Source: a virus. Taken from it: DNA of 52,596 nt. The stretch spans positions 1 through 52,596 of the IMG/VR virus record IMGVR_UViG_3300048057_000049; one strand, 5' to 3'. Positions 2,923 through 52,596 of the stretch are shown here, in pieces (positions within the stretch are counted from its first letter, which is position 1; each line of letters begins with the position of its first letter). The notes below the pieces were generated by a model. That model saw only the letters and a program-made list of their open reading frames with translations, was not told where the DNA came from and ran no database searches. A program made the translations under genes and the position numbers.

Positions 2923-3138
2923 TTAATTTGTGGTGCGCTTAGGACGGCCACGTGTTTTACCGCCAGGTCGATATCTTATTTTGCGGCCGCGACTACTGTT
3001 CTTTGCTCCAGAAACACGAACATTACGCTCGCGCCAATTCCAATAATGGCTAATAGTGCCATCTTTCTTCTTATACTTACGATATTCTTTGCGCCACTTG
3101 CCTCGCCCTTTTCCATGTCTTGTTCCGCGTTTCTTCAT
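2923..3138 (-). CDS. very basic 71-aa ORF; coding status doubtful
   Basis: Rich in K and R, with a single Met. It overlaps the 3' end of the ParB-like ORF by 62 nt. Confidence 0.25.
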   Translation of the reverse strand: MKKRGTRHGKGRGKWRKEYRKYKKKDGTISHYWNWRERNVRVSGAKNSSRGRKIRYRPGGKTRGRPKRTTN

Positions 3139-3652
3139 GACTGTATCCTCTCGCTTGAAGTTTGCTGATTTTATGGATTAGTTCACGCTCGCGTCCTGTT
3201 ACCACATTGCCTGTGACAGTCCACCAGGCCGGATCTTTTGTTTGCACAATTATGCGACTATCTCCATCGAGGCTGATTGGCGCATTTGAAAGATCGACTT
3301 CTCCTAATATCTCAGCTGATATTTTAGAGATCCCAGCAATGCAGGCCGCAGCAGATCGATGATTACCGTCAGTTACAACGTAATACTTTGTATTAAACAC
3401 AACATATCGAGTAACAACTATACAAGGAGATGGCGTATATTGTCCCTGTTGCATTTTCTTCACCAATGACGAGATTGTAAACGGCCGATATGTTTCATAC
3501 AAAATCGAGTCACAGGGGATCTTCATTTTCTTTGCCGGTCTATAGATCTGCACTTGGGCCAGTTCAGATGTCCCCCAGGCGACCAGCACCTCACGTAATG
3601 CAATGCGCGTTTTTGCTTTGTCTGATTCTACAAATTCATACTGACTATCCAT
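3077..3652 (-). CDS. ParB N-terminal / ParB-like nuclease domain protein
   Basis: The motif VVTDGNHRSAAACIAG matches the conserved DGxHR box of the ParB/Srx fold. 191 aa. Confidence 0.6.
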   Translation of the reverse strand: MDSQYEFVESDKAKTRIALREVLVAWGTSELAQVQIYRPAKKMKIPCDSILYETYRPFTISSLVKKMQQGQYTPSPCIVVTRYVVFNTKYYVVTDGNHRSAAACIAGISKISAEILGEVDLSNAPISLDGDSRIIVQTKDPAWWTVTGNVVTGRERELIHKISKLQARGYSHEETRNKTWKRARQVAQRIS

Positions 3653-3818: not shown

Positions 3819-4664
3819 TCAAATTAACGTCATTTGTAATGGTTTAGAAGGAAGGTCATAGTTCATCCAAACGACCTCAGTTGCTTTTCTTGTGCCGTTG
3901 ATCCTTGATTCGGTCTCCATCATATTCCAGCCGGCCAAGCAATTAGCATATAGTTCATGATGATAGCCGGAGATCATTACGGAACCTCTTAACTTTACTA
4001 CAACGTCTAGTAATTTTTCATGATCTTCTAGTGTCATTTCGTGGGCATATGCCGTTTGTTTCCAGGAAGCACGAGTTTCAGCTACATAAGGAGGATCTAG
4101 ATACCACATGACGTTACGTTGATCATAGCGATCTAGTAAGTCAAATATATCCAAACATTCAATCTGAACACCACGCAGGCGATCAGCGACTGCATACAAT
4201 CTATCTACCCGAGCGAACGAAGTGGCAGCAGCCGTTAAACGGCCGTTAGATCTGGAGGCTGTCCCAACCACTTTTTGACGACGCCAACCGGTCTGCCATT
4301 GCGCCGTAGGTCCGGCAATTGACATATAACTGCGAATATAGAAACGTCGTGCTATTTCAAGGTCGTCAAGACCACCTTCATTTGCCGCTGCTTTAAATTC
4401 TTTCAGAGCATAAGGAGTTTTCCAGAGTGCTTCAATCAATTCCTCTTCCCTATCACGAAGCATACGAAAAAAAATAACTACATCTTCACACAGGTCATTA
4501 TAAACTTCCAGTGTGGCGCGATCGCGTTGGAGAAGAATAGCGGCAGATCCACCAAAACCCTCAATAAATACCTCTTCATCCTGCATCAAAGGAATTAACC
4601 ATCTTGCTAGGAGCCATTTACTTCCATGATATCTAATAGCTGGCCTAATCCCCATTATGCCCAT
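3819..4664 (-). CDS. dam: DNA adenine methyltransferase, Dam/D12 class
   Basis: N-terminal RYHGSKWLLA box and catalytic WYLDPPY motif. 281 aa. Confidence 0.8.
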   Translation of the reverse strand: MGIMGIRPAIRYHGSKWLLARWLIPLMQDEEVFIEGFGGSAAILLQRDRATLEVYNDLCEDVVIFFRMLRDREEELIEALWKTPYALKEFKAAANEGGLDDLEIARRFYIRSYMSIAGPTAQWQTGWRRQKVVGTASRSNGRLTAAATSFARVDRLYAVADRLRGVQIECLDIFDLLDRYDQRNVMWYLDPPYVAETRASWKQTAYAHEMTLEDHEKLLDVVVKLRGSVMISGYHHELYANCLAGWNMMETESRINGTRKATEVVWMNYDLPSKPLQMTLI

Positions 4665-5268
4665 CCATCTGCCAATCAGTTATATATTGCTTTCGAGTAC
4701 CACACCCCTTCCCATTCTTTAGGTGATCTTTTTCCCAAACAAACCAGGCGGTTGTTACAGAGTCGGTTTTGCCATCATCTGTGTAGCTGGGGCGAGGACT
4801 GCCAAAGATCAATTGGTGAGAATGGAAGGGCTGCATCTCCTGCAGCAGTTTGGCGCGGCCATAATGCCGACCATGCCCCTGTGTCGGCTCATCAAATGAC
4901 AATCGTAACAGCATAGCTATATTTGTAATCCCCACATGCCACGCAATTCTTAATATTTCCGCTGCACAGTAATAGGGAGGATTAGTGACAAGCCAATCCC
5001 ACCTTAGTCGACTTCTCCACATAGGATGATCATAATTAGTTGCGTCCCCATGAAAGGTCGTTGGCATGTCTGGATCTATATCATTTGTAACTACAACTTT
5101 AACCCTTGGAGATCTCGCAATTTTTCGGGCTACAGCTAATTTCCCCGCAGCGGGTTCCAGTACTGCTCCGTGTATATCTACCGAATTTATCAATGAAACA
5201 ACCTGTGCTTGACTTGTGTAATAAGCATCAAGATGTCTGCGAGCAATCTTCTCTTTTGCCTCAGTCAT
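4645..5268 (-). CDS. second N6-adenine DNA methyltransferase-like protein
   Basis: SAM-binding motif VLEPAAGKLAV and catalytic LVTNPPYY. The 3' end overlaps the dam start by 20 nt. Confidence 0.65.
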   Translation of the reverse strand: MTEAKEKIARRHLDAYYTSQAQVVSLINSVDIHGAVLEPAAGKLAVARKIARSPRVKVVVTNDIDPDMPTTFHGDATNYDHPMWRSRLRWDWLVTNPPYYCAAEILRIAWHVGITNIAMLLRLSFDEPTQGHGRHYGRAKLLQEMQPFHSHQLIFGSPRPSYTDDGKTDSVTTAWFVWEKDHLKNGKGCGTRKQYITDWQMDGHNGD

Positions 5269-6707: not shown

Positions 6708-7709
6708 TTACAGTTTTCTAATATCACGCACTGCGACTGCGATCTTAACACGGAGAGTATCCAAGGGCATACGCATCATTTGCGGGTAGCCGCCTTCAAT
6801 TTTATCTACTATTTTATCATAGCCGATTTCTGCTAATTGGGCGATTGCATCTTGTTGTTTATATCGACTAGGATTGTTTTGCATGACTTCAATGATCTGT
6901 TCTTGAATATCCAGTACACCAGGCCAGCTATCATGAGCACTAGGGAGATAGTCGGCGGAATGTTCCCAGGTACTCATAATATCCACAATCGAAGGCCAGG
7001 CATTCTTCTTGCCTTTCCAATACCCGTTGTACCAGAAATTTGGCGTTTGTGATCGACTGTATCGCTTGAAAACGAGATCGGCCGTAATACCAGCACGAAA
7101 CATTTTCATGACTTTTGCTTCATCATCTTCGAGCACCAGAAGTGGACTCAACTTACATACGTGACAGACCATAGACTTAAGTTGCTCATAAGCTCCACCG
7201 ACATCATAAGTATGGCCATTGACTTCCCTTTGAGTCGTCGGTGTCGTTTCGTGTGTCGTTTTTGTCGTTTCAAGCTGGCTATAAAGAAAAGACAGGTCGT
7301 TATCCAAGAATAGATGGTTATCCAAAGTAGATGGTATATCAATAAATAGATCCTCTTTAGTATATATATATATATAAGATAGCAACGACAAAACGACAGA
7401 AACGACAATGGGCCTGGTTTGCAGGTGATCCAGGATATAAGCGACAGAGCAAAATTGGTGCGCCTGCTCCATCAAGATTTTCTTTGGTTGTGCTTCAATG
7501 CTACGGAAATAACGAAGGTTGCCGCGCTTGTTTTCAATGACGAAACCTTCAGTATGCGGGAGAGATTTTGCATATCGTTGAACGCTACGCAGCGTCAATC
7601 CTGATGCATCTGCGTATTCAGCCAGATCCACACGAACCAACGGTCCAAATCTCAGGCCAACCTGGATTGCTTTCACCAGGTCGGTTACGCCATCTCCATT
7701 TTTATTCAT
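6708..7709 (-). CDS. putative replication initiator (lambda O-like organisation)
   Basis: Sits directly upstream of dnaB and has an N-terminal HTH-like segment (GLTLRSVQRYAKSL). The central low-complexity linker is encoded by an iteron plus AT-rich block at 7234-7407. Confidence 0.45.
   Translation of the reverse strand: MNKNGDGVTDLVKAIQVGLRFGPLVRVDLAEYADASGLTLRSVQRYAKSLPHTEGFVIENKRGNLRYFRSIEAQPKKILMEQAHQFCSVAYILDHLQTRPIVVSVVLSLLSYIYIYTKEDLFIDIPSTLDNHLFLDNDLSFLYSQLETTKTTHETTPTTQREVNGHTYDVGGAYEQLKSMVCHVCKLSPLLVLEDDEAKVMKMFRAGITADLVFKRYSRSQTPNFWYNGYWKGKKNAWPSIVDIMSTWEHSADYLPSAHDSWPGVLDIQEQIIEVMQNNPSRYKQQDAIAQLAEIGYDKIVDKIEGGYPQMMRMPLDTLRVKIAVAVRDIRKL
7234..7407. repeat. ori-like block inside the initiator gene: direct TGTCGTTT x3, an AT-rich core with (TA)8, and inverted TGTCGTTT x3
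   Basis: TGTCGTTT at 7242, 7254 and 7263. Extra GTCGT at 7234 and 7296. tagatggt(t)at x2 at about 7310-7337. (TA)8 at 7361-7376. aaacgaca (the reverse complement) at 7383, 7391 and 7400. Confidence 0.5.
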
Positions 7710-7744
7710 ATTTTCACCCCTTTCTAAATAATTCGCTCACCCCT

Positions 7745-7773
7745 ATATTAAACGATATGCCCGTATTAGTCAA
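7745..7773 (-). promoter_or_regulatory. leftward sigma70-like promoter (TTGACT, 17-nt spacer, TAATAT)
   Basis: Read on the minus strand: -35 at 7768-7773 and -10 at 7745-7750, about 35 nt upstream of the 7709 start. Confidence 0.6.
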
Positions 7774-7929
7774 TAGCAAACAAAAAAGGGTAGACAATTA
7801 CACGCAACGCAAGGGGAAGCGCTACAAGGTGCTTGAGCGAACACCCTTTTGAATCATCTACCCTAACATCCTTTTTACAGGATGGAGCAAAAAGAAGTAT
7901 AGCAATTTATTGCAAAATAAGCCAGAGTG

Positions 7930-7957
7930 TTGACATGCGCCTTGATTCTGTTATAAT
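7930..7957 (+). promoter_or_regulatory. rightward sigma70-like promoter (TTGACA, 16-nt spacer, TGT-TATAAT extended -10)
   Basis: -35 at 7930-7935 and -10 at 7952-7957, preceded by TGT. Confidence 0.65.
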
Positions 7958-8090
7958 GTCCGTATAGGGTAGTGGTTGCCCTAGTCTCATTCATGAGCAA
8001 CAGCTTATGAGCCTTCTTGCAGAGGGGGAGTGATTAGACGGTAATCGCTCCCCATCTCAAACAACCACCAACGCAAAGGGGATATAACTT

Positions 8091-8441
8091 ATGATGAATA
8101 ATTCAGTTAAACTACATCCAGATTTTAACATACATTTCAAAACGTTAGGCCAAACAGTTCAAACGCGAGTCACGATCCTAAGCCAGCCGGCATACAATGA
8201 AAATACGCCTATCACCATGATCGAGCCAGGTAGAACCATGATCATTGGCGACATTCTCGAAGATCTCAAAGGTCTGCTCACACGCTTTGGTAAGCCTGCA
8301 CTCAATGACATGACCTACACCGCAGGTAGGGAAGGTGGAGGATTCTCAAGTAGAGCTATCGAGGCATTACGAGATTACGCTTTTGCTGGTGAATCACCTG
8401 CACCAAGAGCAAAACCAGGCCGGAGAAAGCATACTGATTAA
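8091..8441 (+). CDS. hypothetical protein (first rightward early gene)
   Basis: SD aaagggga upstream of the ATG, about 135 nt downstream of a consensus promoter. 116 aa. Confidence 0.55.
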   Translation: MMNNSVKLHPDFNIHFKTLGQTVQTRVTILSQPAYNENTPITMIEPGRTMIIGDILEDLKGLLTRFGKPALNDMTYTAGREGGGFSSRAIEALRDYAFAGESPAPRAKPGRRKHTD

Positions 8442-8497
8442 AAGTCCCGCAAAATAATGATCAAGCCCTGGTGAGGGCATAAGACACACACTGCTAC

Positions 8498-8551
8498 GCT
8501 GCACCAGCGAGCGCCATACACTTCTCCTTAATCCTCAATCGCTGGTGCAGC
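8498..8551 (+). terminator. long hairpin downstream of 8091..8441
   Basis: 13-bp perfect stem gctgcaccagcga / tcgctggtgcagc with a 28-nt loop. No U-tract follows. Confidence 0.35.
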
Positions 8552-8772
8552 ACCCTCAAACAATAATCCCGCAAAATATTATAGTCCATTCGCGCCAAAC
8601 CTAATTGTATTTTCAATACAGGACAGGTCGCGACCGTGTAGTGCCGCGCCTGAAGATATCAAGATACATAAAGAATAAAACAAAAAAACAAAACCAGAGA
8701 ATCACAAACCACAAAAAAATCACAAACACACAAACATATGTAAAGAGAATAGGAGCAACATAAAAAGAGAGA

Positions 8773-9130
8773 TAGTTTCATTAGTTGATCCAGTTACAAC
8801 AATTCGATTAAAAGTCCACTTGAAACAACCCCAAAAAAGAAGCTCCGCAAAAGAAAAAACAAAAGAGAGGGAATAAAAGAAAAAAAGAAAGTAGTTTCAT
8901 TAGTTGATCCAGTTGCAACAACTCGATTAATGGTCTGCTTGAAACAACGCCAAAAAAGAGGGCTCCGCCAAAGAAAAGATGAAGAAAAACAAAAAGAAAA
9001 ACAGAAAGAAAAACAAAAGAGAGGGAATAAAAGAAAAAAGAAAGTAGTTTCATTAGTTGATCCAGTTGCAACAACTCGATTAATGGTCTGCTTGAAACAA
9101 CGCCAAAAAGAGGGCTCCGCCAAAGAAAAG
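8773..9130. repeat. three dispersed copies of a ~90-bp element with nested inverted repeats, separated by A-rich spacers
   Basis: Copies start at 8773, 8892 and 9045 (tagtttcattagttgatccagttgcaacaactcgattaatggtctgcttgaaacaacgccaaaaaagagggctccgccaaagaaaag). Confidence 0.9.
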
Positions 9131-9373
9131 AGAAAGACGGCCGAACCTCTGCGATCTGGCAGCCACCCCCCTAACAAAGAAAAAGACGGGTGGACATCTG
9201 CGATCTGGCAGCCACCCCCCTAACAAAGAAAAAGACGGGTGGACATCTGCGATCTGGCAGGCAGCCCCCCTAACAAAGAAAAAGACGGCCGAACCTCTGC
9301 GATCTGGCAGGCAGCCCCCCTAACAAAGAAAAAGACGGCCGAACCTCTGCGATCTGGCAGGCAGCCCCCCTAA
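9121..9373. repeat. five tandem 49-50-bp repeats
   Basis: Unit taacaaagaaaaagacgg[ccgaacct|gtggacat]ctgcgatctggcag[g|c]ca[g|c]cccccc. Unit boundaries at 9172, 9221, 9271, 9321 and 9371. Confidence 0.95.
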
Positions 9374-9507
9374 AAACCTACTAACCCGTAAAGATTAGAA
9401 AGACATGAGAGAACAGGCATTATGTCAATCAACGTCAAGCAATTCTAACCCGTACAGAGTACAATAAAGAGAAAACCTACCCGCCGAAAACGGCAAAGGA
9501 AAATGAC

Positions 9508-10296
9508 ATGAGTAAAACATATCAATGTGGACTTTTAACCGAAAAGACAAGAACCCCCCGCGAGTTTAACCAACTGAGAAACACGATCAGCGCCATGATA
9601 GAGGGCATCAAAACCCCAACCATTTTTCACGTACTCCCGTCATCAGACGCAAACAAGGCAGTAAGAGCAGCAACGCACAGCCACCCCCATATCACCGTAA
9701 AAATTCATTATAGCGACCTGAACGGAAAAGGTTACTATGAGCGCATGAGCGAAATCAGACGAAACGCTGGACGCATGGCAGCCGAGATCGACGGCTTAAT
9801 TATCCTAACCGAGACCCCCTCGCAACTTGACCAGCAGATCATCAATAAGGCACAAGATCGCCATATCGCCATCGAAACGGCAAAGATCAAAACAGCCTCA
9901 CCCGCGAAACCAGGCAAAACCTACCACATGCACGAAAAAAACATGCCATACCGTGTAAACATCCGTAATTATGCGACCTGGACAGAGTTAACCAACGACC
10001 TAAACAACCGCGACATAGACGGAAAGCAACCAATTTACTGTGGAGCAGCAAGCGAGCACAAAAAAGTCAAAGGATCGCCACTAGCGAACCAATGGAGAGG
10101 CAGAGCAGACTGGCAGCAAAAATACAAGGCTTGGCTATGGTCGCGAATTCAAGCGAAAGATCCGGCTATCATGCGCGAGTTATCACGCATAAGCCCCACA
10201 ACCCCTTTAGTTTGTTGGTGTCATGGACAGAAAGAGTGTCACACCGATATTATCCGCAAAGCGGCCGCTTATGTAAGGAAAAACACCCAATTTTAG
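9508..10296 (+). CDS. SLOG/DUF2493-like N-terminal domain fused to a DUF4326-like C-terminal domain
   Basis: YSDLNGKGYYERMSEIRRNAGRMAAEIDGLIIL resembles the DUF2493 core. The C-terminal LVCWCHGQKECHTDII resembles the DUF4326 CWC..CH signature. Both are recalled from memory. Confidence 0.5.
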   Translation: MSKTYQCGLLTEKTRTPREFNQLRNTISAMIEGIKTPTIFHVLPSSDANKAVRAATHSHPHITVKIHYSDLNGKGYYERMSEIRRNAGRMAAEIDGLIILTETPSQLDQQIINKAQDRHIAIETAKIKTASPAKPGKTYHMHEKNMPYRVNIRNYATWTELTNDLNNRDIDGKQPIYCGAASEHKKVKGSPLANQWRGRADWQQKYKAWLWSRIQAKDPAIMRELSRISPTTPLVCWCHGQKECHTDIIRKAAAYVRKNTQF

Positions 10297-20786: not shown

Positions 20787-20854
20787 CGAAGCTTACGCAA
20801 CCTATGATGATAACAGCCCCGCCGGTGGCATCGTAACCGGCAAAGGAAAATGAC

Positions 20855-21076
20855 ATGACGACATTATCAGCAGAGCAAACAAGCGCATTATCATTAGCAG
20901 TCAGCCTCATTTTAGATGCTGCGAAAGAAGCTGGCCCATTGGGTGCACCAAGCGGTATTGTTTACGCCGCACTTAGCGCCCACGGAATGACCCTTCTTTC
21001 TTACCAGTCAATTATTAACGCACTAACCAGAGCGAGCAAAATCACAGTTAAGAATAATTGCATCATTTTAGTTTAA
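20855..21076 (+). CDS. hypothetical protein
   Basis: 73 aa. Preceded by the conserved stem-loop plus aaaggaaaa. Confidence 0.5.
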   Translation: MTTLSAEQTSALSLAVSLILDAAKEAGPLGAPSGIVYAALSAHGMTLLSYQSIINALTRASKITVKNNCIILV

Positions 21077-21154
21077 CCTAACAGCCCCGCCGGTGGCTCA
21101 TAACCGGCAACTACTTTGTATAGATGGGATTTAGCAATTAGTCAAGGAGATGAG

Positions 21155-21307
21155 ATGACGATATTAGACAAGTTTATGGGAAAGACAATGAAGGTTGGTT
21201 CACCTGAGTATGTCGCATGGCTTAAAGCGGCGTCCGATGAGGCGTGGCGAGAAGAGATAGTAGCACAAATTGAGGAATACAACGCCAATAACGACAAGGA
21301 GAAATGA
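21155..21307 (+). CDS. small hypothetical protein (50 aa)
   Basis: ATG at 21155 with aaggaga 7 nt upstream. The track start at 21116 is unsupported. Confidence 0.4.
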   Translation: MTILDKFMGKTMKVGSPEYVAWLKAASDEAWREEIVAQIEEYNANNDKEK

Positions 21308-21344
21308 AATGACACACAATTGGGATCTATAAGGAGATTCAAAA

Positions 21345-21641
21345 ATGTACAACAATAATCCAGTAGGCCATAAACTAGAATCAGAGCAGGAAATAATCGA
21401 ACACCTGAACACATACGTAGGCGAACTAAAATATTCAGTGATTGACGATGAATATGGCCGATGTGTACTTGAAGCCTCTTTAACGAAGCGAAATGAAAAC
21501 CCCGATTTTTCAGAATTTGATTATTCAATTTGGAGCGACCGTATAATTGGCGGCTGTCTGCGCTACAATGACAGCGCTGAGGGTTTAGCCTACTACATGA
21601 TAAATTCGCAAGCCCGAGTTCATTGGACAATTAACGCATAG
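21345..21641 (+). CDS. hypothetical protein
   Basis: 98 aa with SD taaggaga upstream. Confidence 0.5.
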   Translation: MYNNNPVGHKLESEQEIIEHLNTYVGELKYSVIDDEYGRCVLEASLTKRNENPDFSEFDYSIWSDRIIGGCLRYNDSAEGLAYYMINSQARVHWTINA

Positions 21642-21693
21642 GATAACACCATTAACAGCCCCGCCGGTGGCTAATAACCGGCAAAGGAAAATC

Positions 21694-21906
21694 ATGTTCA
21701 AAAAAAATAATGCATCAACAAGCCTGAAGAAAGCGGCATATCGTCAAGGTGCGCGCGGCAACTGGAAATGGGAACATCGAAACGCACGAACTGCCGATGA
21801 AACCCTTGCCATCGTCATAGATAGCAAAGGTAGAGAATTCAAAATCACCTCATATGAACTTGACTGGGTTGGCGATTTAACCTGGCCAGAAGTCAAGGAA
21901 ATGTAA
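21694..21906 (+). CDS. small basic hypothetical protein (paralog of 11694..11912)
   Basis: ATG at 21694 after the stem-loop plus aaaggaaaa. The track start at 21667 (GTG) lies in the hairpin. Confidence 0.55.
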   Translation: MFKKNNASTSLKKAAYRQGARGNWKWEHRNARTADETLAIVIDSKGREFKITSYELDWVGDLTWPEVKEM

Positions 21907-21985
21907 GACTAATTTTACAACAGCCCCGCCGGTGGCTAATAACCGGCAAATAGTTGAGAACAGCAACACACAAGGAGACAGGACG

Positions 21986-22135
21986 ATGACAAAATATTAC
22001 GGCCCAACACATCACAAATTTTCAACCGAACTAATTGCATATTCATTTTTCATGAAGGCAAAATACACATACGGGGATATTCAAGCCCCTCAATTAATCA
22101 ATGGGTTTTGGGTAGTAATCACATACCCAAAATAA
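21986..22135 (+). CDS. small hypothetical protein (49 aa)
   Basis: ATG at 21986 after the shared leader ...aacagcaacacacaaggagac. Confidence 0.45.
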   Translation: MTKYYGPTHHKFSTELIAYSFFMKAKYTYGDIQAPQLINGFWVVITYPK

Positions 22136-22205
22136 ATATCTAACAGCCCCGCCGGTGGCTAATAACCGGCAAATGGTTAAGAACAGCAACACACAAGGAG
22201 ACGAC

Positions 22206-22445
22206 ATGACAATCAAATGGGAATCAGGAGAATCGGGATACAAAACAAAAAAGTTTGGCGGGTTTATGACTGATGAAGTTCAGGGAGTTGTCCATTATTT
22301 TTCCGATGAAAACAAATGGAGTGGGGGAATCATTAATTGGGATAATGAGCAGTTGAGTAAATTCCGCTATGATTTTGAGAGTAAGCGAGCTGCTATTAAA
22401 TGGACTAATCAGCAATTACGCGGAAGTGGAATCAGTTTAGTTTAA
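22206..22445 (+). CDS. hypothetical protein
   Basis: ATG at 22206 after the shared leader with aaggaga. Confidence 0.5.
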   Translation: MTIKWESGESGYKTKKFGGFMTDEVQGVVHYFSDENKWSGGIINWDNEQLSKFRYDFESKRAAIKWTNQQLRGSGISLV

Positions 22446-22512
22446 CCTAACAGCCCCGCCGGTGGCTAATAACCGGCAAATGGTTAAGAACAGCAACACA
22501 CAAGGAGACGAC

Positions 22513-22746
22513 ATGACAAACCAAGAGATTATCGGAACAGTCAAAACATTAAGACAAATCTACGAATCAGACATTACGCCGAAAAATTGCAAAATGTGGT
22601 ATTACGTACAATCTCACAAAGAATGGGAACGAGTCAATTATATTAACGGCTACGATGTTAATACTCAAAGCAACAAACTGAGCGGTGATTTTGGAAAACG
22701 CACCTGGATGCTTCACCCAAACTGCACCGTACTAATAGAGGCATAA
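22513..22746 (+). CDS. hypothetical protein
   Basis: ATG at 22513 after a leader identical to that of 22206. Confidence 0.5.
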   Translation: MTNQEIIGTVKTLRQIYESDITPKNCKMWYYVQSHKEWERVNYINGYDVNTQSNKLSGDFGKRTWMLHPNCTVLIEA

Positions 22747-22792
22747 CCCCCAAGCCCCGCCAGTGGCTCATAACCGGCAAAGGAGTAGTCAG

Positions 22793-23035
22793 ATGAACAA
22801 AGAATTTCAGAACCAAGTATTAGGAATGTTGTTAGGACTGGCAGAAGCCTGGGGCAAAAAACAAGACGAATGGACTCCAGACCAAACCCACCGAATTCGC
22901 GAATTATACCTACTACTGGAAACGCCATTTGTCGTGGCCATTTTCAACAGCGGCTTTACAAGCACGCAGGAATTTTTAACAGAGATTGGCACAGGATTGT
23001 ACCCCGATCTTCAACATAACGAATACTTGAGATAA
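22793..23035 (+). CDS. hypothetical protein
   Basis: ATG at 22793 after a degenerate stem-loop plus aaaggag. Confidence 0.5.
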   Translation: MNKEFQNQVLGMLLGLAEAWGKKQDEWTPDQTHRIRELYLLLETPFVVAIFNSGFTSTQEFLTEIGTGLYPDLQHNEYLR

Positions 23036-23545: not shown

Positions 23546-24616
23546 ATGAAAAAAGACAGCGACATAACACCTACAATTCCCCCCTCAGCGCACACGTCCC
23601 CTCACATCCCCCCACGTGCTGACGCACAAACCGGCACATCCTCACCCACAACGGCTGAGGATCAGCCACCAACACACGTGCTTCCCCCAGCTGGAACATC
23701 CCCCAACGAAACGGCCGTTCAGGAGGCAACCGCCCTTATGGAAGCACTGGCCGGCACATCCTCACCCACAGAGAACGTGTCCCCCCCCACTCCGCACATG
23801 CAGGCGCATACCAACACGGCCGTTGATCAACCAGAGAATCGGCAACAAGACGAGACCACCTTAGAGTGGTTCGCCAGGTCATTGGCTAAACCAAAGGAAG
23901 AGGATATGTCCGAGATGATACGCTGGACACAGCAGCGTATTATCAAAGAGCAGATGGTTGAATACCATGCTAGATGGATTGAAAAGACGATCCCCATGCT
24001 AAAACGCCTGGACAACGTGCCACACGTGCATGACCGCATCCTGATGAAGCGTACCATTCTGCTTATCGTCACGGCCGATTACCTAGCCGAGACCAGACAG
24101 AGCGTGTTCGACATGGATGTCACAGCCAACAGGCAAGCATGGACGCGGTGGATGAAACGGCCGGAGATCCGAGCAGTCTACGATGACATCTTTAGTGCCA
24201 TGGAATCCGAAGTGCTGAACCATGAGCTATCTGCTATTCGTGCAGCTACCCGAACTACACGTGTGTCAGCAGCCCGAGCAGCCGAAGTTCGAGCATCCTT
24301 GCTAGAGCACGATAACCCATGGGTACAGTTGACCGCTGCGCGTGATGTATTGCAGTCTGCGTCATCTGATACGGCTAGTAAACAGTCTATTCGTGTACAG
24401 GCTGCTTTGTCAGAAGGACAGGTAGAAGAACTGCTCGCACGTGCTAACGCAGAACTGACCAAGTGGAGCCAGCTACCCCCATTGACAGATAGCAATGATA
24501 GACAGTCTATCGTCGTGGTTGACATGCCAACCAAACAAGCCACCATAGAGGGTGATGACCCACCCGTTGAGGGACGCACCGGCCAGTCTAAGCATGGGCC
24601 AGCAGACCAGGAATAG
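23546..24616 (+). CDS. hypothetical protein with a Pro/Thr/Ser-rich repetitive N-terminus and a helical C-terminal domain
   Basis: 356 aa. AGTSSPT occurs twice. It is the last gene before the 1-kb non-coding block. Confidence 0.55.
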   Translation: MKKDSDITPTIPPSAHTSPHIPPRADAQTGTSSPTTAEDQPPTHVLPPAGTSPNETAVQEATALMEALAGTSSPTENVSPPTPHMQAHTNTAVDQPENRQQDETTLEWFARSLAKPKEEDMSEMIRWTQQRIIKEQMVEYHARWIEKTIPMLKRLDNVPHVHDRILMKRTILLIVTADYLAETRQSVFDMDVTANRQAWTRWMKRPEIRAVYDDIFSAMESEVLNHELSAIRAATRTTRVSAARAAEVRASLLEHDNPWVQLTAARDVLQSASSDTASKQSIRVQAALSEGQVEELLARANAELTKWSQLPPLTDSNDRQSIVVVDMPTKQATIEGDDPPVEGRTGQSKHGPADQE

Positions 24617-24624
24617 ACGGCCGT

Positions 24625-24863
24625 GTTCTCCATTGAGAACAAACAATATAAATACTCGATAGTCTTAACACGTAAGTGGTAAGACTATCGAGTATAAGAG
24701 GACTATACCCACACGGCCGTATCGTACGTACGGCCGTGTGGGTATAGGGGGTGCATGTGTGGGTCAGGAAGGTTGGATCACATGCACGTTTAACTATACC
24801 GATAGGTATAGTTAAACAAAAAAAGATGGTACCAAAGAGGTGGCCGGCCGGAGTGCTGGCCAC
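24625..24863. other. cluster of six consecutive hairpins / palindromes
   Basis: Stems at 24625-24640 (6 bp), 24652-24695 (16 bp), 24703-24747 (19 bp), 24751-24787 (9 bp), 24788-24817 (13 bp) and 24840-24863 (6 bp). Confidence 0.85.
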
Positions 24864-25253
24864 ACACGACTTGTCGTGGTTAGAGAGGTCAGCGCAAATT
24901 TTCGGCAGGGATCCCCATTGCAAAATCCATCTTTTTGGAACATCAACCAACATAGGGAAGATACTTAAAAATAAGGGAAGGGGCGGCACAACTATAATTT
25001 TTCTGGCATACCCTGGAAGTTTAAAAAAAGTCCTCTACTATTAGTTGTTATGCTTGTTTTGACAATCGCCAAGTAATAAACGAAGAGACCAAAAACGACG
25101 TGGTTGTCCATATACATTTGTATTGTTTTGCTTGTTTTAGTTGTTTTGCCCCAATGCTACGCAAGCAAAACAAGCAATTCAGAAGGGCATTGACATTGAA
25201 TAGAATTACGACCACGTTGGAGGGAAACAGGGGCCTTCACAATGGTACATATG

Positions 25254-25319
25254 GTAACTTGTAGTTACCATAGTAGTAACTTGTAGTTACCATAGTAGTA
25301 ACTTGTAGTTACCATAGTA
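25254..25319. repeat. 22-bp tandem repeat x3 (gtaacttgtagttaccatagta), each unit containing the inverted repeat gtaac-ttgta-gttac
   Basis: Exact copies at 25254, 25276 and 25298. Confidence 0.95.
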
Positions 25320-25398
25320 GTTTGTTATCAAATAATAGCATCTCCATAACCCAGGAGAAAGCAGGTAAAGCTAGGAGCCTCACGAAACGGCCGAAATA

Positions 25399-25500
25399 TA
25401 TGTCGGTTTTAAGTCTTTATGTCGGTTTTAAGTCTTTATGTCGGTTTTAAGTCTTTATGTCGGTTTTAAGTCTTTATGTCGGTTTTAAGTCTTTATGTCG
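25399..25500. repeat. 19-bp tandem repeat x5.4 (tatgtcggttttaagtctt)
   Basis: Exact copies at 25399, 25418, 25437, 25456 and 25475, plus a partial copy at 25494. Confidence 0.95.
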
Positions 25501-25555
25501 CGACGTCTCATGGATACATTGCACACAAATACGGCCGAGTAAAGCAAAGAGGGCC

Positions 25556-25584
25556 TTGATCAATACGGGACAGTAAGATACAAT
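25556..25584 (+). promoter_or_regulatory. sigma70-like promoter candidate (TTGATC, 17-nt spacer, TACAAT) upstream of 25632
   Basis: -35 at 25556-25561 and -10 at 25579-25584, about 55 nt downstream of the 19-bp iterons. Confidence 0.45.
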
Positions 25585-25631
25585 ATAGAGAGAGCAGCAA
25601 AAAAGCATAATTTTAGTAAAGGGGAAATCAA

Positions 25632-51623: not shown

Positions 51624-52596
51624 ATGGCTCGTTCTTTTGCTCGCGCCAACTCTGAATATTTAGAGATAAACTCTGCCGTTGTGACCGCAACGCCGCTAAC
51701 AATAGCGTGTTGGTTTTATACTGATAACGTTGGTGCTGGAGTTTTTCAAGACCTCGTAGGTTTATATAATAGCGGGAATGCAAATCAGTATAAATTAGCG
51801 TTCGAGCCAACCAACGCACTGCGAGCCGTTGATTATGGCGCATTTTTCAAATATGCACAGACGACCGGTGTTTCTGTTGACACATGGCATCATGCGTGCG
51901 GTACATTTTACAACGGCGGCTCAAACCGTTCCGTGTTTTTGGATGGCGGCAATAAAGTTACTGATACGTTGTCTGGTGCAAGCGAGGCATTAACGGTAAA
52001 TGAAACGATGGTTGGTGCGGCTGGTGGCTCGTCTAATTTTTTGTCAGGGCGTGTAGCTGAAGCGGCTGTTTGGAATGTGCAGCTAACGGACGCAGAGGTT
52101 GCAATCCTCGGTGCTGGATATTCACCGTTATTTGTCAGGCCGCAAAGTTTAGTTGCCTATTGGCCGCTGGTACGCGGCGACAATGACAAAATTGGCGGCT
52201 ATAACATGACGCCGGTTAATTCGCCCACGTTCGTCGAGCATCCCCCGATGCTCTACCGGTCATTGCCGTTTGTTATAATGCCTGCGGCCACAGGCGGTGA
52301 CCTCAATCTAATCCTTGGAGACATCACGGCCGCATCTCCAGTGCTAGACACCATGGTCTTGGCGCAGGAGCACGATCTAATCCTTGGAGACATCACGGCC
52401 GCATCTCCAGTGCTAGACACCATGGTCTTGGCGCAGGAGCACGATCTAATCCTTGGAGACATAGAGACTCAGGCACCTGCGCTAGACACCATGGTCTTGG
52501 CACAAGAGCACGATCTAATCCTTGGAGACATCACGGCCGCATCTCCAGTGCTAGACACCATGGTCTTGGCACAAGAGCACGATCTAATCCTTGGAG
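51624..52596 (+). CDS. N-terminal part of the LamG-like (concanavalin-type jelly-roll) fibre protein. Runs off the window end and continues at base 117 (or base 2 of the overlap).
   Basis: Pattern LTIACWFY...WHHACGTFYNGGSNRSVFLDGG...FLSGRVAEAAVWNVQLTDAEVAIL is typical of Laminin_G_3 domains. There is no stop before the window end. This ORF is absent from the supplied track. Confidence 0.75.
   Translation, partial: MARSFARANSEYLEINSAVVTATPLTIACWFYTDNVGAGVFQDLVGLYNSGNANQYKLAFEPTNALRAVDYGAFFKYAQTTGVSVDTWHHACGTFYNGGSNRSVFLDGGNKVTDTLSGASEALTVNETMVGAAGGSSNFLSGRVAEAAVWNVQLTDAEVAILGAGYSPLFVRPQSLVAYWPLVRGDNDKIGGYNMTPVNSPTFVEHPPMLYRSLPFVIMPAATGGDLNLILGDITAASPVLDTMVLAQEHDLILGDITAASPVLDTMVLAQEHDLILGDIETQAPALDTMVLAQEHDLILGDITAASPVLDTMVLAQEHDLILG
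52305..52596 (+). repeat. the same 69-bp tandem repeat array (part upstream of the junction)
   Basis: Units begin at about 52305 within the LamG ORF. Confidence 0.95.
52481..52596. repeat. 116-bp terminal overlap identical to 1..116 (circular closure or assembly overlap)
   Basis: Base-by-base identity checked by eye. Confidence 0.9.

Follow-up and report, generated by a model that had tools for sequence, protein, structure and literature searches.

Recently duplicated non-coding repeats in the gene-free early region of an uncharacterised phage

Direct repeats of about 45-120 bp that carry an internal inverted repeat and lie near replication genes are known from the F plasmid, whose sopC contains twelve 43-bp units, each with an inverted repeat, and from phage P4, in which crr comprises two direct repeats of about 120 bp carrying initiator sites. 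In phage lambda the early right region contains cro, nutR (boxA and the boxB hairpin) and tR1, and the origin lies inside gene O; an origin inside the initiator gene is the arrangement of both lambda O and P22 gene 18. The subject of the present analysis is a block of direct repeats of about 90 and 50 bp that begins at position 8773 of the IMG/VR virus record IMGVR_UViG_3300048057_000049, a stretch of 52,596 nt analysed over its whole length (the window). At the RNA level it may be compared with the type III antitoxin arrays, which have units of 31-62 nt in 1.9-5.6 copies (PMC3401426), and with the pseudo-ToxI repeats of phage PhiTE, which expand by strand slippage and have mosaic units (PMC3475682).

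The repeats are real, recently duplicated and located inside a gene-free stretch of the phage early region. They are read here, with a probability of roughly 0.4, as young products of slippage or unequal exchange in the hypervariable spacer of a conserved non-coding control region, without a conserved function of their own. The block is composed as follows:

8773-8859, + strand: element copy 1, about 86% identical to copies 2 and 3
8857-8891, + strand: polypurine spacer 1, the same as 9010-9044 save for one A
8892-8978, + strand: element copy 2, an exact match to the 87-nt string of the first-pass annotation
8979-9044, + strand: spacer 2, holding a 12-nt micro-repeat (8982-9018, 3.1 copies) and the duplicate of spacer 1 (9010-9044)
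9045-9130, + strand: element copy 3, one indel relative to copy 2, truncated into the next array
9127-9373, + strand: five tandem 49-50-bp units, consensus AAAGAAAAAGACGGCCGAACCTCTGCGATCTGGCAGGCAGCCCCCCTAAC, 94% matches

The first-pass annotation had reported three direct copies of an element of about 90 bp at 8773, 8892 and 9045, separated by polypurine A/G spacers that are themselves duplicated, and sequence comparison and a profile search bear out both statements. The 87-nt string given for the element occurs exactly at 8892 only; copy 3 lacks one A relative to copy 2 (about 99% identity), and copy 1 differs from copy 2 by 12 substitutions and one or two indels. The copies start 119 and 153 bp apart, and Tandem Repeats Finder reports a period of 119 with 87% matches. 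When the window and the nine related loci described below were searched with a profile built from the three copies, only those three were recovered, at E values of 7e-26 to 2e-31, a direct repeat far beyond chance. The 12-nt micro-repeat nested in spacer 2 has the sequence AAGAAAAACAAA.

The end coordinate of 9130 cuts the block short, as copy 3 passes directly into the array of 49-50-bp units, which had been overlooked. These units are mosaics of two left-half variants (GCCGAACC and GGTGGACA) and two right-half variants (GCCACCCCCC and GGCAGCCCCCC), and all four combinations are present, the pattern expected from unequal exchange. The recency of the amplification follows from copies 2 and 3 being one indel apart, the co-duplication of the spacer, the nesting of the micro-repeat and the 94% matching of the 50-bp units. 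Separate short-read contigs of the same phage break inside the arrays, which is what real repeats would be expected to cause; the contigs that carry the identical flanking proteins are this phage again, at 100% identity, and are of no use for covariation. The genome is repeat-rich overall, with 18 direct-repeat families of at least 30 nt.

The second line of evidence comes from relatives, found by way of homologues of the DUF4326 protein and with a profile of the family to which the 116-aa product of the first rightward gene belongs. They represent nine distinct syntenic loci: L008, L010 (same sequence as L019), L011, L012, L015 (close to L018), L016, L020, L023 and L025. Flanking proteins are 25-50% identical to those of the window, and the gene order is shared: DnaB and then an orphan gene of about 320 aa (both leftward), a divergent promoter region, a rightward gene of about 120 aa, a mostly open reading frame (ORF)-free stretch of about 1.1-1.6 kb, and the next genes. 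The family is uncharacterised and found in metagenomes only. The 11-kb contig of L019/L021 (QNDS01000085.1) is binned in a Candidatus Fermentibacteria metagenome-assembled genome, which is the sole host hint, and a binning error is possible.

The element is absent from all nine loci, by nhmmer as well as by a covariance model with the proposed structure, so that the first-pass expectation of conservation in related phages is not borne out. Nothing meaningful was found for the repeat region in near and distant DNA searches of phage and plasmid collections, and an exact 21-mer scan of IMG/VR returned no match to it. When the flanking orphan proteins were scanned one by one against IMG/VR, no match was obtained, and a single-sequence search with the 116-aa protein recovered only itself; the 333-aa orphan protein encoded on the other side of the divergent promoter region found one relative (P0003), whose contig stops before the region. 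The features that frame the repeats, together with the genes that bound them, are the following:

7930-7957, + strand: rightward early promoter, sigma-70-type, TTGACA-16 nt-TATAAT with a TG upstream of the second hexamer, 12/12 consensus matches
8091-8441, + strand: first rightward gene, 116 aa, conserved orphan family (14 family clusters, 40-52% identity)
8440-8456, + strand: conserved box 1, AAAAGTCCCGCAAAATA, overlapping the stop codon of the 116-aa gene
8498-8551, + strand: strong hairpin with a 13-bp perfect stem and a 28-nt loop, -26.1 kcal/mol, z = -6.5, 0/200 shuffles as stable
8562-8578, + strand: conserved box 2, AATAATCCCGCAAAATA, followed by a -10-like TATTATAGT, from the box comparison
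8693-8736, + strand: short A/C-rich repeats, ATCACAAAC twice plus further CACAAAC units, from the repeat search
9381-9464, + strand: two CCCGTA boxes (9385 and 9449), the second abutting a -10-like TACAAT (9460-9465)
9479-9497, + strand: small hairpin of the 5' untranslated region (5'-UTR) just upstream of the Shine-Dalgarno sequence, GCCG/CGGC in the window and GACGG/CCGTC in L010
9508-10296, + strand: next gene, 262 aa, with a C-terminal DUF4326 domain; 9521-9545 pairable with element copy 1

On the left, AAAGTCCCGCAAAA boxes flank or follow the hairpin across the family, and TCCCGCAAA is the sole 9-mer core common to all five regions that were compared, with two copies in each and always on the + strand. 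An equally strong hairpin stands at the same place in eight relatives (z -3.7 to -7.5), its stem sequences being unrelated; it is probably a leaky terminator or a 3' stabiliser for the first gene. The location of the repeats downstream of this gene and its hairpin agrees with what had been annotated. By eye, L008 and L010 have a promoter-like sequence at the position equivalent to 7930-7957, and in L008 the leader downstream of it is also shared with the window. On the right, the family keeps the CCCGTA boxes, a -10-like TAnAAT and the small 5'-UTR hairpin before the next gene; the CCCGTA block has a 17-nt identity with L010 and is 72% identical over 95 nt to L009 (E = 6e-13). The box at 9449 with its TACAAT is likely, from its sequence, to be the promoter of the next gene.

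The box-hairpin-box arrangement after the first rightward gene can be described as a module, with one to three + strand AAAGT(C/A)CCGCAAAA boxes per locus, usually with a TAT-rich hexamer 2-5 nt on. It may act as a leaky terminator with promoters, or as an RNA control site, and was located as follows:

window 8440-8578; L010 4957-5040; L011 3185-3373; L012 5610-5790; L015 5330-5465
L016 4389-4535; L020 2298-2390; L023 4981-5055; L025 5385-5520

The layout recalls lambda in having a first early gene, a hairpin flanked by conserved single-stranded boxes and an untranslated stretch before the next genes, as well as an origin candidate (iterons plus an AT-rich tract) in an initiator gene beside a helicase-related gene. 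Unlike lambda, however, the boxes are AAAGTCCCGCAAAA rather than boxA, no N-like protein was identified, and the untranslated stretch is about 1 kb long and filled with repeats, which lambda does not have; the likeness is one of layout only.

Between these conserved ends the content changes from lineage to lineage. L011 and L012 each have two copies of an element of about 125 nt plus three 11-bp repeats, L015 and L018 have six to eight 18-bp repeats and also 11-bp iterons, L016 has four 32-bp repeats plus 11-bp TATCCCAAAC iterons, L010 has the TATCCCAAAC iterons, and in L023 the middle of the region has no repeats. The A/C-rich motif at 8693-8736 of the window resembles the TATCCCAAAC iterons of L010, L015 and L016, by eye only. 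Since the repeats differ by lineage and the flanking elements are conserved, the repeats lie in a hypervariable spacer between conserved control elements. The favoured reading is further supported by the fact that constrained non-coding elements (boxes, hairpin, promoter block) are detectable at the same divergence at which the repeats are not.

The elements of L011 and L012 are distinct from that of the window and C-rich (L011 3702-3819 and 3881-3996; L012 6141-6265 and 6326-6456), have no consensus structure on either strand, and have a partial homologue in L016 at 5140-5197 (E = 6e-5). Their copies begin with TAGTT and end with CATTATGT(C/A)AAG; CATTATGTCAA occurs once in the window, at 9418. 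A likeness of the window element to those of L011, L012 and L016 (TAGTT..., TTGATCnAGTT, AGAGGTGGCTCCG) was noted by eye and dropped, being unsupported by nhmmer or cmsearch. No consistent enrichment was seen for the TAGTT motif, and that of AAAAGTCC is not significant (5 observed against 1.8 expected, with 5 reached in 6/100 shuffles).

The following course of events would account for these observations. A family-wide non-coding control region of about 1.1-1.6 kb separates the first rightward early gene from the DUF4326 gene and is bounded on the left by the strong hairpin with its AAAGTCCCGCAAAA boxes and on the right by the CCCGTA boxes, the promoter and the 5'-UTR hairpin. In its hypervariable middle, and in this phage lineage only, the three elements of about 90 nt, their spacers and the five 50-bp units would have arisen as young tandem amplifications. 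The most plausible mechanism is slippage during replication, or unequal recombination, at the A-rich microhomologies found at the borders of all units (CAAAGAAAAGA). The repeats would then have been tolerated, or at most recruited in this lineage, as spacer probably carried on the rightward early transcript.

Several observations weigh against reading the repeats as functionless spacer. Phage genomes are economical with space, and no relative has lost the ORF-free region; in most lineages this slot again contains repeat arrays, a hint that repetition itself may be under selection. The difference between copies 1 and 2 is non-uniform, all 12 substitutions falling inside a single 60-nt block, and a 27-nt 5' core (TAGTTTCATTAGTTGATCCAGTT) is identical in the two copies despite their diverged flanks (P ~7e-4, our own estimate); gene conversion could be an alternative source of this pattern. 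None of the six substitutions inside a 52-nt core touches any of the 14 base pairs proposed (P = 0.0066, post hoc, from one comparison and with no compensatory change). The variant block of copy 1 (8803-8819) is complementary at 16/17 positions to 9527-9543, codons 7-12 of the DUF4326 gene, a match reached by 0/300 shuffles, with a predicted RNA duplex of -23.9 kcal/mol (z = -3.2). The signals of function, namely the 27-nt core, the avoidance of pairs, the complementarity and the strand skew considered below, are individually weak and were found post hoc.

Some of these signals would be explained by a role at the RNA level, which is possible though doubtful. The arrays would be transcribed rightward within a long early RNA that is not translated, initiated either from the promoter at 7930, with read-through of a leaky hairpin, or from the CCCGCAAAA boxes, which are shared with relatives. 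They would offer a multi-copy, mostly single-stranded, A-rich platform or decoy to an RNA-binding factor; an RNase, a chaperone resembling Hfq and, as in the case of PhiTE pseudo-ToxI, an endoribonuclease of abortive infection are among the candidates. Copy 1 could in addition base-pair with the beginning of the DUF4326 coding sequence in its mRNA. Transcription itself is plausible from the sequence: the consensus early promoter stands upstream of the repeats, and on the + strand a scan of 7700-9700 detected no intrinsic terminator, which makes a place for the repeats on the early rightward transcript plausible. All conserved motifs of the region, boxes included, are + oriented and the AT skew is 0.47 (A far above T on the + strand, with the same sign as in the flanking genes and a larger magnitude), consistent with rightward transcription. 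The arrays, however, have no promoter or terminator of their own, no such site being found on the + strand within 8600-9400.

Structure gives this reading less support. The nested inverted repeats that had been described are present, with outer arms GTTTCA and TGAAAC and inner arms TTAGTTGA and TCGATTAA (two G-T pairs) around GTTGCAAC, a central palindrome that is degenerate in copy 1 (GTTACAAC), but their stability is no greater than that of shuffled sequence. Folded as + strand RNA, copies 1-3 have z-scores of -0.83, -1.48 and -1.68; the corresponding - strand values are +0.90, -0.06 and -0.22, and the nearby hairpin at 8498-8551 reaches -6.5. In favour of a role at the RNA level, the inner stem needs G-U pairs, which are possible on the + strand only, and the substitutions between copies avoid the proposed pairs. 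Four 50-bp units were also folded on the + strand, and unit 2 alone beats its shuffles (z -2.9; the other three +0.75 to -1.4). An Rfam scan gave nothing better than E = 0.25 and nothing within 8773-9130. With no sequence or structure homologue in the nine syntenic relatives, covariation, which had been proposed as a check, cannot be shown, and the description of the element as a structured non-coding RNA is not supported. The possibility that the 50-bp units form leftward terminators on the - strand was considered and dropped, unit 2 being the strongest (z -1.9) and the other three that were folded ranging from -0.1 to -1.0, and also because no leftward transcription unit requires them.

As regards the antisense component, 9527-9543 is the best + strand partner of the copy 1 variant block genome-wide, but the complementarity is missing in copies 2 and 3 and in all relatives.

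Like PhiTE pseudo-ToxI and the type III antitoxins (ToxI, CptI, TenpI), the block consists of tandem head-to-tail non-coding repeats in a phage intergenic region; its array of five 50-nt units falls within the antitoxin range of unit size and copy number, and pseudo-antitoxin repeats of phage are themselves known to expand by slippage. Unlike them, the arrays show no sequence or Rfam similarity to known antitoxins, are not followed by a terminator and a toxin gene (no homologue of ToxN, CptN or TenpN was found in the window), and include, in the three-copy element, units of 119-153 nt that lie outside the range. The downstream 262-aa protein has the DUF4326 domain only, and no toxin match was found in PADLOC or Pfam. 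The (ARN)n tracts pointed out in the first-pass annotation are present in both spacers as long A-R-N runs, resembling the Hfq-binding tracts of small RNAs and mRNA leaders, but any A/G-rich sequence fits ARN, which makes the match trivial. Hfq-dependent small RNAs have their own promoter and a terminator hairpin ending in a U tail, and the block has neither.

A more elaborate proposal along the same lines, which we consider improbable, combines these elements: both arrays would be slippage-amplified early RNA decoys that titrate an RNA-binding protein of the host, whether defensive or regulatory (such as an Hfq-like chaperone or a type III-like endoribonuclease toxin), copy 1 would in addition regulate the DUF4326 gene as an antisense RNA, in cis or in trans, and the family-wide gene-free slot would be an evolvable cassette for RNA countermeasures.

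A function at the DNA level is unlikely. In this case the repeats would be arrays of binding sites for a phage DNA-binding protein, for instance the 116-aa or the 333-aa orphan, and would form an accessory replication, copy-control, partition-like or transcription-control element. In favour of this, every unit has imperfect palindromes: in the element it is GTTGCAAC, part of a 31-bp dyad, and in the 50-bp unit CTGC-N6-GCAG. Within the invariant 27-nt core, (T/C)AGTT recurs three times with a spacing of 9 nt, and an inverted CAACT comes after it. Relatives have helically phased 11-bp iterons in the same region, and the block has the genes for the initiator and DnaB to one side of it and those for SSB and helicase to the other. 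With these properties it shares with sopC and P4 crr the unit size, the internal inverted repeat and the position near replication genes. Unlike in those systems, no cognate binding protein of the SopB/ParB or P4 alpha type was found for the repeats, whose short motif is neither shared with the origin candidate at 7231-7408 nor conserved in any relative. Spacings of 119, 153 and 49-50 bp amount to 11.3, 14.6 and 4.7 turns of the helix and are out of phase, and conservation extends over whole units, spacers included, instead of being confined to a short core in the 50-bp array. Neither ParA nor ParB was identified, nor any other recognisable partner that binds DNA, and the predicted fold of the 116-aa protein has no match in the PDB.

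A better candidate for an origin lies elsewhere. Within the 333-aa gene, 7231-7408 contains in order four TGTCGTTT-type iterons, two GTTATCCAA boxes (DnaA-box-like), a (TA)8 tract (GC 0.28) and three inverted AAACGACA units. This layout is kept in L008, L011 and L012, is rearranged in L015 and takes the variant form TGTCCGTTT/AAACGGACA in L010; the (TA)n tract encodes the conserved YIYIY of the 333-aa family protein. Because this lambda-O-like candidate is conserved family-wide, the repeats are probably not the primary replication origin. Their units of 119, 153 and 49-50 bp also differ from the short repeats of about 17-22 bp in helical phase that mark iteron origins, and the best combination of iterons and AT-rich sequence by the initiator and helicase genes is that at 7231-7408.

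Two sequence marks were considered and rejected. A cluster of GATC (Dam) sites does not distinguish the region, GATC being over-represented genome-wide (338 observed against about 196 expected), and the ACGGCCG motif is not region-specific, CGGCCG being about 5-9 times over-represented throughout the genome. In the whole window CGGCCG occurs 68 times against roughly 8-13 expected. The phage has at least two adenine-methyltransferase-like genes (3819-4664 and 4645-5268).

The link to partition that the first-pass annotation had itself called weak, a parS-like centromere bound by a phage ParB, is effectively refuted. GTTTCA and TGAAAC, the outer arms, agree with the TGTTTCAC and GTGAAACA halves at 6/8 and 7/8 positions, but these partial half-sites are 40 nt apart, as against a contiguous 16-bp palindrome (TGTTNCACGTGAAACA), and are conserved in no relative; the supposed ParB-like protein of 191 aa (3077-3652) has no ParB match in Pfam (E <= 1), PHROGs, NCBIfam or PDB sequences, and no ParA-type ATPase was seen among about 30 proteins scanned. 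A coding function, in which the block would specify a repetitive lysine-rich protein such as that of the ATG-initiated 97-aa ORF at 8930-9223, is effectively excluded, since periods of 119, 49 and 50 are not multiples of three and put the copies in different frames, stops occur in every frame of the repeat region, and this ORF has no Shine-Dalgarno sequence, no matching ATG in copy 1 and no protein family match.

The gap without a credible ORF is 1,066 bp long (8442-9507), with stops in all six frames, in agreement with what was first annotated; the listed ORFs at 8794-9177, 8808-9074 and 8930-9223 had rightly been set aside as artefacts, running as they do through repeats with periods of 119 and 49-50. 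No tRNA or tmRNA genes were found by ARAGORN. The window is a complete phage contig with a genome of about 52.5 kb, and an exact 116-bp terminal direct repeat (1-116 and 52481-52596) indicates a complete circular or circularly permuted genome; the gene that spans the contig ends (1-668 and 52205-52596) carries about ten copies of 69-bp coding repeats. Large terminase, major head and tape-measure proteins are encoded, all remote from those of known phages. A leftward operon that encodes the 333-aa orphan (6708-7709, - strand), DnaB and methyltransferases diverges from a long rightward gene set at 7710-8090. The 116-aa protein received no assignment in Pfam, PHROG, NCBIfam or PADLOC, and an AlphaFold2 model of its family (pLDDT, the predicted local distance difference test score, of 80) no PDB fold match by Foldseek; for the 333-aa family a PDB profile search gave no functional assignment.

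Other repeats and motifs occur along the genome. The motif CCCGTA(C/A)AG, followed after 1-3 nt by TAnnAT, is found on the + strand only, at 2105, 9385, 9449, 11331 and 11479, and may define a phage-specific promoter class; a 96-nt unit that includes it is present at both 11331 and 11479, the two copies being 99% identical. At 20806-22804, small genes are preceded by seven copies of an element of the 5'-UTR, a hairpin CCGGTGGCTAATAACCGG and then CAAAGGAAAATG, to which the 5'-UTR at 9488-9521 is related. Another stretch of about 1 kb that is free of ORFs and rich in repeats, at 24617-25631, holds three 22-bp repeats (25256-25322), six perfect 19-bp repeats (25399-25519) and ACGGCCG-containing palindromes; the cumulative GC skew turns upward near it, and GACGGCCGTGTTCTCCATTGAGAAC at 24616 closely resembles L010 at about 5134-5167, in the early ORF-free region of that locus.

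The repeat block is thus real but fairly ordinary, as tandem non-coding repeats are common in phage regulatory regions. Were the repeats expressed as RNA decoys, they would provide the second natural example of slippage-driven RNA mimicry after PhiTE pseudo-ToxI. More useful is the context in which they were found: a conserved gene-free control region, a box-hairpin-box module and an origin-like structure in the gene of an orphan initiator.

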